IMG/VR virus record: IMGVR_UViG_2521172734_000004
Coordinates: 1-7,811 of that record
DNA from: a virus
Lineage: Duplodnaviria; Heunggongvirae; Uroviricota; Caudoviricetes
Strand: one strand, 5' to 3'
Length of the DNA stretch: 7,811 nucleotides
A model generated the notes under the pieces. The model ran no database searches. It had not been told where the DNA came from and was given only the letters and a program-made list of their open reading frames with translations. Positions 239-1,552 of the stretch are shown one piece after another; position 1 is the first letter of the stretch; each line of letters begins with the position of its first letter. Position numbers and translations under genes: made by a program.

Positions 239-982
239 ATGACAGAGACAGAATCAGCGATTCTGGCGCACGCCCGGCGATGTACGCCAGCGGAGTCGTG
301 CGGCTTCGTGGTGAGAGCGCCGGAGGGGGAAAGATATTTTCCCTGCGTGAATATTTCCGGTGAGCCGGAGGATTATTTCCGGATGGCTCCGGAGGACTGG
401 CTGCAGGCAGAAATGCAGGGTGAGATTGTGGCGCTGGTCCACAGCCACCCCGGTGGTCTGCCCTGGCTGAGTGAGGCTGACCGGCGGCTGCAGGTGCAGA
501 GTGATTTGCCGTGGTGGCTGGTCTGCCGGGGGACGATTCATAAGTTCCGCTGTGTGCCGCATCTCACCGGGCGGCGCTTTGAGCACGGGGTGACGGACTG
601 TTACACGCTGTTCCGGGATGCTTATCATCTGGCGGGGATTGAGATGCCGAATTTTCATCGCGGGGATGACTGGTGGCGTCACGGTCAGAATCTCTATCTT
701 GACAATATGGAGGCTACTGGTTTTTACCGTGTCGCACTGACAGAGGCGCAGCCGGGCGATGTGCTGCTGTGCTGTTTTGGTTCATCGGTGCCGAATCATG
801 CCGCCATTTACTGTGGTGACGGCGAGCTGCTGCACCATATTCCTGAACAACTGAGCAAACGAGAGAGGTATACCGACAAATGGCAGCGACGCACACACTC
901 CCTCTGGCGTCACCGGGCATGGCGCGCATCTGCCTTTACGGGGATTTACAACGATTTGGTCGCCGCATCGACCTTCGTGTGA
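239..982 (+). CDS. K: Tail tip assembly protein K (JAMM/MPN metalloprotease-like N-domain plus NlpC/P60-like C-domain)
   Basis: ORF-track frame 197..982; I place the start at ATG 239-241 (MTETESAIL...), 5 nt after the L stop. A JAMM motif HSHPGGLPWLSEAD (H-x-H-x7-S-x2-D) is encoded at nt 440-481, with candidate upstream Glu residues. A conserved Cys in VTDCYTLF (nt 599-601) and downstream His residues (NHAAIYCG...LLHHIP) fit an NlpC/P60 fold. The C-terminus ...GIYNDLVAASTFV* resembles lambda K. Start is ambiguous: TTG 197, ATG 239 or ATG 383 (the 199-aa lambda annotation); 239 is preferred because the MPN fold needs the residues upstream of HSH. Confidence 0.88.
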   Translation: MTETESAILAHARRCTPAESCGFVVRAPEGERYFPCVNISGEPEDYFRMAPEDWLQAEMQGEIVALVHSHPGGLPWLSEADRRLQVQSDLPWWLVCRGTIHKFRCVPHLTGRRFEHGVTDCYTLFRDAYHLAGIEMPNFHRGDDWWRHGQNLYLDNMEATGFYRVALTEAQPGDVLLCCFGSSVPNHAAIYCGDGELLHHIPEQLSKRERYTDKWQRRTHSLWRHRAWRASAFTGIYNDLVAASTFV

Positions 983-1552
983 AAACGGGGGCTGAAGCCA
1001 TCCGGGCGACTGGCCACACAGCTCCCGGCGTTTCGTCAGAAACTGAGCGACGGCTGGTATCAGGTACGGATTGCCGGGCGGGACGTCAGCACGTCCGGGT
1101 TAACGGCGCAGTTACATGAGACTCTGCCTGATGGCGCTGTGATTCATATTGTTCCCAGAGTCGCCGGGGCCAAGTCAGGTGGTGTATTCCAGATTGTCCT
1201 GGGGGCAGCCGCCATTGCCGGATCATTCTTTACCGCCGGAGCCACCCTTGCAACATGGGGGGCTGCCATTGGTGCCGGTGGTATGACCGGCATTCTGTTT
1301 TCTCTCGGTGCCAGTATGGTGCTCGGCGGTGTGGCTCAGATGCTGGCACCGAAAGCCAGAACTCCCCGCACACAGACAACGGATAACGGTAAGCAGAACA
1401 CCTATTTCTCGTCACTGGATAACATGGTTGCCCAGGGCAATGTCCTGCCTGTTCTGTACGGTGAAATGCGCGTGGGGTCACGTGTGGCATCTCAGGAGAT
1501 CAGCACGGCAGATGAAGGGGACGGTGGTCAGGTTGTGGTGATTGGTCGATGA
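880..1552 (+). pseudogene. I: Tail tip assembly protein I, disrupted by an apparent +1-nt frameshift (N-terminal 43 codons in frame 1, remainder in frame 2)
   Basis: Frame 1 from ATG 880 gives MAATHTLPLASPGMARICLYGDLQRFGRRIDLRVKTGAEAIRA, then runs into unrelated sequence and stops at 1117-1119. Frame 2 is open from 983 to TGA 1550-1552 and from about 1010 encodes LATQLPAFRQKLSDGWYQVRIAGRDVSTSGLTAQLHETLPDGAVIHIVPRVAGAKSGGVFQIVLGAAAIAG...GGQVVVIGR*, which matches the rest of lambda gpI as I recall it. The span is 673 nt, one more than a 223-codon gene plus stop. The switch point is within about 1003-1012 (gcc atc cgg gcg A ctg gcc). It overlaps the K 3' end by 103 nt in another frame, as in lambda. 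Confidence 0.7.

Follow-up and report, generated by a model that had tools for sequence, protein, structure and literature searches.

The tail tips of phage lambda and of the F-pyocins are among the closest described systems to the locus considered here. The architecture of the lambdoid K and I proteins was described in 2006 by Iyer, Burroughs and Aravind (PMC1779556), who predicted that the JAB domain cleaves TAPI at the C-terminal Gly of its ubiquitin-like (Ubl) domain; theirs is the comparative-genomic proposal of a lambdoid Ubl step to which the first-pass annotation of the present DNA had referred. In lambda virions, gpI was found by mass spectrometry (MS) and gpK was absent. Cryo-EM of the lambda tail has modelled gpI residues 135-223 in one study and 134-222 in another, the linker not being resolved, and has described it as a trimeric plug that holds the C-terminus of gpH. 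According to a conference report of October 2025, the Davidson lab showed that gpK removes the Ubl from gpI, and does so only once gpI is associated with the rest of the tip proteins. We found no peer-reviewed paper with gpK-gpI cleavage data in the literature searched, and the direct claim comes from this meeting summary. For the F-pyocin, stalled tips still contain the N-terminal region of PA0640 (the gpI homolog), whereas mature particles lack it, and host proteases also remove this region when PA0640 is produced by itself in E. coli (bioRxiv 10.64898/2026.02.24.707460). Deletion of PA0639, the gpK homolog, results in tip-less tubes, and PA0639 is likewise absent from the particles. The first-pass view that the biochemistry of the K-I pair is poorly characterised is becoming outdated.

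The window, i.e., the whole stretch of 7,811 nt analysed here, carries ORFs for L, K, I, J, lom, stf and tfa (L, K, I and J by Pfam, the others named from the record of E. coli 55989). Its DNA is approximately 95% identical to that of lambda-like phages, and the gene at positions 1..234 is annotated as L in both E. coli 55989 and phage 21. The region under study comprises genes K and I of the tail-tip operon (L-K-I-J) of a lambda-like prophage, essentially that of E. coli 55989 (Table 1). Lambda gpK/gpI (TAPK/TAPI) shares with it the L-K-I-J order, the protein lengths (247 and 223 aa), the 103-nt stretch in which I overlaps the 3' end of K in another frame, the domain architecture and the motifs. 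The sole difference between the two systems is one additional G (+1) at nt 1008 in the window I, and, once this is repaired, the protein departs from lambda gpI by 3 substitutions (A124T, I164T and V203A). The K-I architecture and the predicted JAB cut have been known since 2006, and the window adds no new biology to them.

Table 1. Features of the K-I region, in nucleotide positions of the window.
Feature	Position (strand)	Details	Basis or remarks
Tail-tip gene L (minor tail protein L), 3' end	1..234 (+)	stop codon 232-234	Pfam Phage_tail_L, E 2.3e-18
Gene K	239..982 (+)	247 aa, tail-tip assembly protein K	ORF; PF14464 + PF00877
JAB/MPN+ domain of K	248..550 (+)	residues 4-104	catalytic Glu E19 at nt 293-295
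JAMM zinc-site motif of K	440..481 (+)	H68-S-H70-x7-S78-x2-D81 = HSHPGGLPWLSEAD	residues 68-81, computed coordinates
NlpC/P60 (C40, papain-like) domain of K	569..910 (+)	residues 111-224	
Putative catalytic residues, NlpC/P60 domain of K	599-601; 797-799; 833-835 (+)	C121; H187; H199	
Gene I (tail-tip assembly / plug protein), disrupted	880..1552 (+)	223 aa without the extra G	ORFs 880-1119 + 1139-1552
Ubl beta-grasp domain of I	919..1183 (+)	residues 14-101, across the frameshift	ends G100-G101, nt 1178-1183
Inserted G in I	1008..1008 (+)	frame lost after codon 43; shifted frame of 36 codons, stop 1117-1119	alignment
Gly/Ala-rich hydrophobic linker of I	1184..1282 (+)	residues 102-134	alignments
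C-terminal structural ('plug'/insertion) domain of I and stop codon	1283..1552 (+)	residues 135-223	

From its sequence, K is predicted to be a two-domain protease, with a JAMM zinc isopeptidase at the N-terminus and an NlpC/P60 cysteine peptidase at the C-terminus. The profile searches suggested in the first pass gave matches above the Pfam curated cut-offs for both halves: Prok-JAB (PF14464, cut-off 25 bits) covered residues 4-104 with 52.4 bits (E 5.6e-14), and NLPC_P60 (PF00877, cut-off 23 bits) covered residues 111-224 with 47.4 bits (E 2.1e-12) over its entire profile (1-105 of 105). The first domain adopts the MPN fold. The complete JAMM motif and the NlpC/P60-like domain behind it, both claimed by the first-pass annotation, are therefore borne out; the motif lies exactly at the nucleotides that had been given, and E19 upstream joins HSHPGGLPWLSEAD to complete the E-x(n)-H-x-H-x7-S-x2-D signature, as defined in PMC300881. 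Relatives of K are annotated as 'C40 family peptidase' (PGAP) or 'tail tip assembly protein K', and K itself is 97% identical to P0126, the commonest database cluster. In the second domain, C121, H187 and H199 presumably form the catalytic triad, which we assume from what is known of the NlpC/P60 family. PDB searches using the K sequence or a profile of it returned no solved homolog except two stand-alone JAB proteins.

The I precursor is composed of a MoaD/ThiS-like Ubl domain (approximately residues 14-101), a hydrophobic linker and, at the C-terminus, the domain from which the trimeric plug is built. The repaired protein matched Lambda_tail_I (PF06805) over residues 14-97 with 99.8 bits (E 1.2e-28), and even the broken first ORF still scored 39.3 bits against this profile; the N-terminal domain has a beta-grasp (ubiquitin-like) fold, MoaD/SAMP-like in kind. 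The Gly-Gly end ascribed to this domain is present in the window, where it closes with '...IVPRVAGAKSGG', but among relatives the last Gly alone is conserved: all 30 close homologs have G101, and it aligns in 11 of the 12 diverse ones, whereas the penultimate G100 varies in the alignments, unlike in classical GG-ended modifiers. The hydrophobic Gly/Ala-rich segment reported to follow is there as well, and it varies in length and sequence among the aligned relatives. Among PDB chains, repaired I matched lambda gpI (PDB 8IYK chain I) with an E value of 3.4e-140 and the F-pyocin chain 9 of PDB 25VF with 8e-18. Its plug domain matched the 90-residue chain of 9E7M (residues 133-222) with 3.5e-51, and the C-terminal domain corresponds to the gpI residues that were modelled in 8IYK, 8IYL, 8K35, 8XCG and 9E7M.

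Two side observations concern the annotation of this region. The common choices of start codon, which give a K of 199 aa and an I of 190 aa, hide the JAB and Ubl domains, respectively, and automated annotation would gain from correcting both starts. Additionally, a hairpin 3' of I was called a terminator by the annotators of phage 21; a simple terminator scan did not detect it.

The reading frame of I in the window is not intact, being split by a single G that is additional relative to both E. coli 55989 and phage 21 in DNA alignments. The sequence around nt 1008 reads GGGCACTGG in 55989, GGGCGCTGG in phage 21 and GGGCGACTGG in the window, and relatives carry A or G. The insertion falls at codon 43/44, within helix 1 of the Ubl domain in the structure model, just as the first-pass annotation had it inside this domain. 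Among 7,853 I copies from 4,137 complete E. coli genomes, none has the extra G (best match, 100 of 101), and it was found neither in IMG/VR contigs nor in any of 80 viral loci, all 80 of which carry an intact I. Since no other copy shares it, the frameshift is most simply read from these alignments either as a sequencing error or as a mutation that inactivated I very recently, and I as written in the window is a pseudogene or a sequence error. A programmed frameshift or a natural allele at this position was also considered and is ruled out by the absence of the G from the 7,853 E. coli copies and IMG/VR. With I frameshifted, the plug domain would not be made from the normal start, and the prophage would consequently be tail-defective unless the G is a sequencing error; the position is therefore worth checking before the prophage is scored as such.

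Conservation was followed in two sets. The related loci sampled on viral contigs are 98-100% identical, and the diverse set is a spread sample drawn by tblastn from a phage collection, with 12 annotated regions. The JAMM-domain residues E19, H68, S69, H70, S78 and D81 of K do not vary across 44 close homologs or across 12 diverse phage homologs of 28-52% identity, and, like this site, C121, H187 and H199 are invariant in the same 44 and 12. The gene order is K, I, J in 9 of the 11 annotated records from diverse phages; of the other two, one has a homing endonuclease after I and one has genes on the reverse strand between K and I. Natural K-I fusion proteins also exist, e.g., P0149. Its structure model (pLDDT 51.6, pTM 0.40) has usable folds and is too poor to place the Gly tail in the JAB site.

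We consider it probable, at roughly 80%, that the pair consists of a precursor, I, with a removable Ubl tag, and a non-structural maturation enzyme, K, that cuts I after the Gly of the Ubl. In the sequence of events we propose, I would dock with J and L during tail-tip assembly before it is cut; the JAB domain of K would then cut I after the terminal Gly, G101, a scissile bond and an active site that we infer; and the Ubl and K would leave, so that the finished tail keeps the C-terminal part of I alone. Because the Ubl and K leave and this part stays, the Ubl would be a removable tag controlling a single step of assembly, and not a conjugated modifier. The sole gpI peptide in the lambda MS table covers 9.87% of the protein, i.e., 22 residues, a length that fits the C-terminal tryptic peptide 202-223 alone, which implies that no Ubl peptide was recorded. 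As the cryo-EM density of gpI begins at 134/135 and not at 102, residues 102-133 may be disordered or may also be removed.

According to one alternative, which we regard as improbable, it is the NlpC/P60 domain that frees the Ubl from I, following the logic of papain-like DUBs, and the JAB domain mainly binds the Ubl or cuts elsewhere. Its C121, H187 and H199 are indeed invariant to the same degree as the JAMM residues, and eukaryotic DUBs are mostly papain-like (PMC1779556). However, the nearest analogues that pair a MoaD-like Ubl with a protease employ a JAMM enzyme (PfJAMM1-SAMP2, PDB 5LDA), a relationship also reflected in a weak NCBIfam 'desampylase' match of K, and the conference report speaks of a 'deubiquitinating domain' of gpK, which is most naturally the JAB domain. 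Moreover, the neighbours of the NlpC/P60 region by structure (CwlO, MepS, Tae3 and an endolysin) belong to the cell-wall endopeptidases and amidases and not to the DUBs. A further idea, advanced here tentatively as rather unlikely, is that the NlpC/P60 half is a second processing enzyme with a substrate of its own in the tail-tip pathway, in which case K would couple two cuts to one checkpoint. The invariance of C121, H187 and H199 is compatible with this idea, and the processing of gpH to gpH* would be a candidate for the second cut.

The behaviour of PA0640 could be taken to mean that K is not an enzyme at all. In that case the Ubl would do no more than solubilise or chaperone the very hydrophobic linker of I within the same chain, host proteases would trim it, and K would be a non-catalytic assembly chaperone. 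Trimming of the N-terminus of recombinant PA0640 by E. coli proteases indicates that cleavage does not strictly need K, and the absence of gpK from virions is what would be seen of chaperones. Nevertheless, the complete motifs of two peptidase domains remain invariant at 28-52% identity, as one would not expect of a protein without catalytic function; conservation is also seen at the terminal Gly of the Ubl; and gpK has been reported, at the conference, to cleave gpI. The N-terminal region is, furthermore, stable in stalled tips and lost on maturation only, which argues for a regulated and not an adventitious cleavage. We therefore hold this explanation to be very improbable.

The first-pass annotation had left the choice between a conjugation and a processing step. 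Processing by K is the part that gains support, and true conjugation, in which the freed Ubl of I would be ligated through its C-terminal Gly to a tail protein with the transglutaminase-like NlpC/P60 fold as the ligase, now seems scarcely credible. The Ubl is MoaD/SAMP-like and Gly-ended, and the Bil defence system lets bacteria conjugate Ubls to the central tail fibre of phages. However, the Gly lies inside a chain that continues into a structural domain, and no E1-like adenylating enzyme or E2 lies in the window, the operon included, or in the 7 kb upstream in 55989, which hold head and tail genes only; nor do Iyer et al. list an E1 for phage neighbourhoods (PMC1779556). The part of gpI in the virion is without the Ubl, the lambda MS peptide fitting the C-terminal tryptic peptide only, and three structural studies describe no extra Ubl density on gpJ, gpL or gpM. 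Equally hard to credit is the proposal that the NlpC/P60 domain travels with the virion as a cell-wall hydrolase, aids DNA injection and lies next to I by coincidence: its structural neighbours, the PGAP name of its relatives and weak NCBIfam matches, far under the cut-offs, to RipC and to 'putative phage cell wall peptidase, NlpC/P60 family' lean that way, but neither gpK in lambda virions nor the homolog in F-pyocin particles has been detected, the Ur-lambda paper states that lambda virions have no peptidoglycan hydrolase, K sits near L, I and J in all of the sampled annotated phages, and deleting the K homolog blocks tip assembly itself.

Read as a maturation enzyme and its tagged precursor, the K-I pair would exemplify a viral form of ubiquitin-fold logic, in which a JAMM protease gates the assembly of a molecular machine by taking off a MoaD-like tag. 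The module bears on the prokaryotic origins of the pairing between ubiquitin and DUBs, and its significance belongs to the earlier and current work on phage assembly.

Beyond lambda, one counterpart is the F-pyocin, where the C-terminal residues 127-200 of PA0640 alone are found in the mature particle (10.64898/2026.02.24.707460); it is, however, a tailocin and not a phage, it is distant in sequence, and the preprint names no protease. The archaeal JAMM1/SAMP (desampylase) system and the actinobacterial CysO system likewise pair a JAMM enzyme with a MoaD/ThiS-type beta-grasp protein, on whose C-terminal Gly the enzyme acts. In those systems, however, the Ubl is free and takes part in E1-like activation and in sulfur transfer or conjugation, whereas in K-I it is carried in cis on a structural protein and there is no E1; the fusion of the JAMM domain to NlpC/P60 also sets K apart from both. 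In eukaryotes, ubiquitin is fused N-terminally to ribosomal proteins and is clipped off after its last Gly by DUBs. The likeness to I lies in an N-terminal Ubl clipped around assembly and is one of analogy, not membership, as the Ubl of I belongs to the MoaD/ThiS-like clade, is prokaryotic and viral, and has no known further use once released. Finally, the BilA/BilC proteins of Bil and Cap3 of CBASS operate alongside E1 and E2 enzymes on a Ubl that is conjugated, and they serve the defence of the host and not the assembly of the phage.

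The product of gene K (247 aa) carries two peptidase domains, each scoring about twice its curated Pfam cut-off: Prok-JAB on residues 4-104 (E 5.6e-14) and NLPC_P60 on residues 111-224 (E 2.1e-12). The JAMM motif that the first-pass annotation had read at nt 440-481 lies exactly there, as HSHPGGLPWLSEAD (residues 68-81), and E19 completes its signature, E...HxH-x7-S-xx-D; the NlpC/P60-like domain proposed to follow it was likewise recovered by the profile search. Gene I, read without the extra G at nt 1008 (repaired I, whose numbering we use), encodes 223 aa, of which 3 differ from lambda gpI, with Lambda_tail_I (Pfam) on residues 14-97 (E 1.2e-28). 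Its ubiquitin-like (Ubl) region terminates in ...IVPRVAGAKSGG, with G100-G101 at nt 1178-1183, and runs directly into a hydrophobic segment rich in Gly and Ala, both features having been noted before; the frameshift does fall within this N-terminal domain, at codon 43/44 in helix 1 of the predicted model, and all four observational statements of that annotation proved correct. K has no solved structure, its sequence matches being limited to the stand-alone JAB proteins 2KKS and 2KCQ. As a stand-in for the K-I complex we took P0149, a protein cluster representing a natural frameshift fusion, K(1-219)-I(7-end), whose model was poor overall and uninformative on docking (pLDDT 52, pTM 0.40); its Foldseek neighbours were JAMM proteins, among them JAMM1 in complex with the Ubl SAMP2.

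Features of the lambda-type tail-tip gene block in the 7.8-kb window
Feature	Position (nt)	Basis
3' end of L	1-234	Pfam
K	239-982	Pfam
I	880-1552	Pfam
J	1613-5008	Pfam
lom-like gene		name from 55989 record
stf-like fibre gene, collagen-like repeats	5827-7194	name from 55989 record
tfa-like gene		name from 55989 record

Among 44 close homologs of K, the JAMM residues together with C121, H187 and H199 are invariant. By tblastn, two-domain homologs occur in approximately 1,725 records of phages infecting a wide variety of hosts, and we sampled 12 diverse ones (hosts: Mannheimia, Acinetobacter, Stenotrophomonas, Pseudomonas, Serratia, Erwinia, Klebsiella, Moraxella, Ralstonia and Synechococcus), one of which was unannotated and left out of the alignment. 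At 28-52% identity, E19, H68, S69, H70, S78 and D81 were all invariant, as were D120, C121, N186, H187, H199 and H200; both active sites of K are therefore under selection. All close homologs of I keep G101, which also aligns in 11 of the 12 diverse ones, while the position before it may be G, N, Q, A, S or E, so the conserved feature is a single terminal Gly rather than a strict Gly-Gly, as Iyer et al. (PMC1779556) described; the hydrophobic linker varies in length. Gene order was K, then I, then J in nine of the 11 annotated records, with a homing endonuclease after I in one and reverse-strand genes between K and I in one.

K and I stand apart in some distant phages, and their tight overlap is therefore a feature of the lambda group and not a property of the module: the gap is 560 nt in Pseudomonas phage vB_Pae_U2 (locus L088, 1941-2505), a terminator and a small ORF intervene in a Mannheimia phage (L083, 1929-2198), and two reverse-strand ORFs do so in Moraxella phage Mcat24 (L093, 1957-2615). 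Lambda-like K is also extended at its C-terminus by about 20 residues (HSLWRHRAW...NDL...), within residues 220-247 (nt 896-979). Close relatives keep this extension; in most distant homologs, which end near 'RHKD', it is absent or different. Because the same DNA encodes this extension and the N-terminus of I, one reading frame may constrain the other.

The best-supported reading is that K and I form a cis-tag processing system. I would be translated as Ubl-linker-plug and join J and L as the tip forms; the JAMM site of K would then cut it after G101, the Ubl and K would depart, and the C-terminal part would remain as the plug holding the tape-measure C-terminus. Our own analysis establishes the domain identities, folds, conserved residues, gene order and lack of E1/E2 genes. 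We infer the exact bond and which K site cuts it; virion composition, maturation-dependent N-terminal loss and cleavage by gpK come from the literature, in which our search found no full paper with gpK-gpI cleavage data. In lambda cryo-EM, gpI was resolved only at 135-223 in one study and 134-222 in another, as a trimeric plug gripping the gpH C-terminus. Mass spectrometry of lambda virions detected gpI and not gpK; the single gpI peptide gave 9.87% coverage, or 22 residues, and 202-223 at the C-terminus is the sole gpI tryptic peptide of that length, which is weakly consistent with a virion lacking the Ubl. In the Pseudomonas F-pyocin, deletion of PA0639, the gpK homolog, yields tip-less tubes, as does deletion of the plug, and PA0639 is absent from the particles (bioRxiv 10.64898/2026.02.24.707460).

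It is unlikely that the NlpC/P60 site, invariant as it is, does this cleaving; it could make a second cut in I, or cleave gpH to gpH*. That host proteases trim I while K serves purely as a chaperone is improbable too, both K sites being conserved. The first-pass annotation had cited a proposed Ubl conjugation or processing step: processing is supported, and true conjugation is unlikely, with no E1/E2 gene in the window or the upstream 55989 genes examined and no sign of Ubl adducts. Nor is K, undetected in virions, likely to be a virion cell-wall hydrolase.

The inserted G splits I into ORFs 880-1119 and 1139-1552, the first ending after 43 native and 36 out-of-frame residues (stop at 1117-1119). 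None of the 7,853 copies of the region drawn from 4,137 complete E. coli genomes carries it (best match 100/101), and it was also absent from IMG/VR and from 80 fetched viral loci. The local sequence is GGGC-A-CTGG in E. coli 55989, GGGC-G-CTGG in phage 21 and GGGC-GA-CTGG here, which suggests an error in the consensus at a site that is polymorphic, within a multi-copy prophage region; a real recent mutation is the less likely alternative. A programmed frameshift was rejected, the extra G being in no other copy examined. If the frameshift is real, no plug domain would be made from the normal start, and the prophage should be tail-defective, because deleting the F-pyocin plug leaves tip-less tubes and, in lambda, I belongs to the classical set of tail genes.

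The window shares about 95% identity with many lambda-like coliphages, and is in essence the prophage located at 1.13 Mb in 55989 (99.9% match over 200-1620, 99.5% over 1-6923). Base-by-base alignment covered 860-1160 and 5700-7811, with 200-1620 implied by the 99.9% match, and the sole differences in these stretches were the extra G and a deletion in the stf-like gene. There, at 6754/6755, 36 nt (12 aa) are missing in-frame from the collagen-like G-x-x repeats, through either repeat-number variation or assembly collapse; 5700-7811 is otherwise identical. Directly 3' of the I stop, between I and J, lies a GC-rich hairpin with a T run (aaaccgcctgcgggcggttttgtcgttt, ~1569-1596). Phage 21 is annotated with a terminator at the equivalent site; a simple consensus terminator scan did not report the hairpin. 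A terminator here would sit inside the late operon and be noteworthy.

Start-codon annotation conceals both domains. Lambda K was long annotated as 199 aa from M49 (nt 383 vs 239), a start that drops E19 together with half the JAB domain, and PGAP starts I of 55989 at a GTG at nt 979 (190 aa) vs 880, losing the first Ubl strands; a 2020 review using these forms recognised no more than 'a peptidase domain' and an 'alpha-beta-alpha-beta motif'. Large 199-aa K clusters in the protein database bear only PF00877 (P0164, P0179, P0186, P0188). Public data also hold numerous K-I fusions (P0009, P0013, P0014, P0017, P0018, P0035, P0076, P0088, P0101, P0137 and P0149), mostly single-member clusters with differing junctions in or near the 103-nt overlap (880-982). 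They look like indels, arising by sequencing error or prophage decay, and not like a conserved fusion architecture, and may explain some 'fusions' noted in 2006.

The biochemistry of K and I is now being reported by other groups, and the function of the NlpC/P60 site is the sole place in the module where novelty could lie. The pair is the textbook lambda pair, already known: Iyer, Burroughs and Aravind published its ubiquitin-like/JAMM nature in 2006 (PMC1779556), describing TAPI (I) as a ThiS/MoaD-like Ubl at the N-terminus joined through a Gly-rich linker to a C-terminal domain, and TAPK (K) as JAB plus NlpC/P60.
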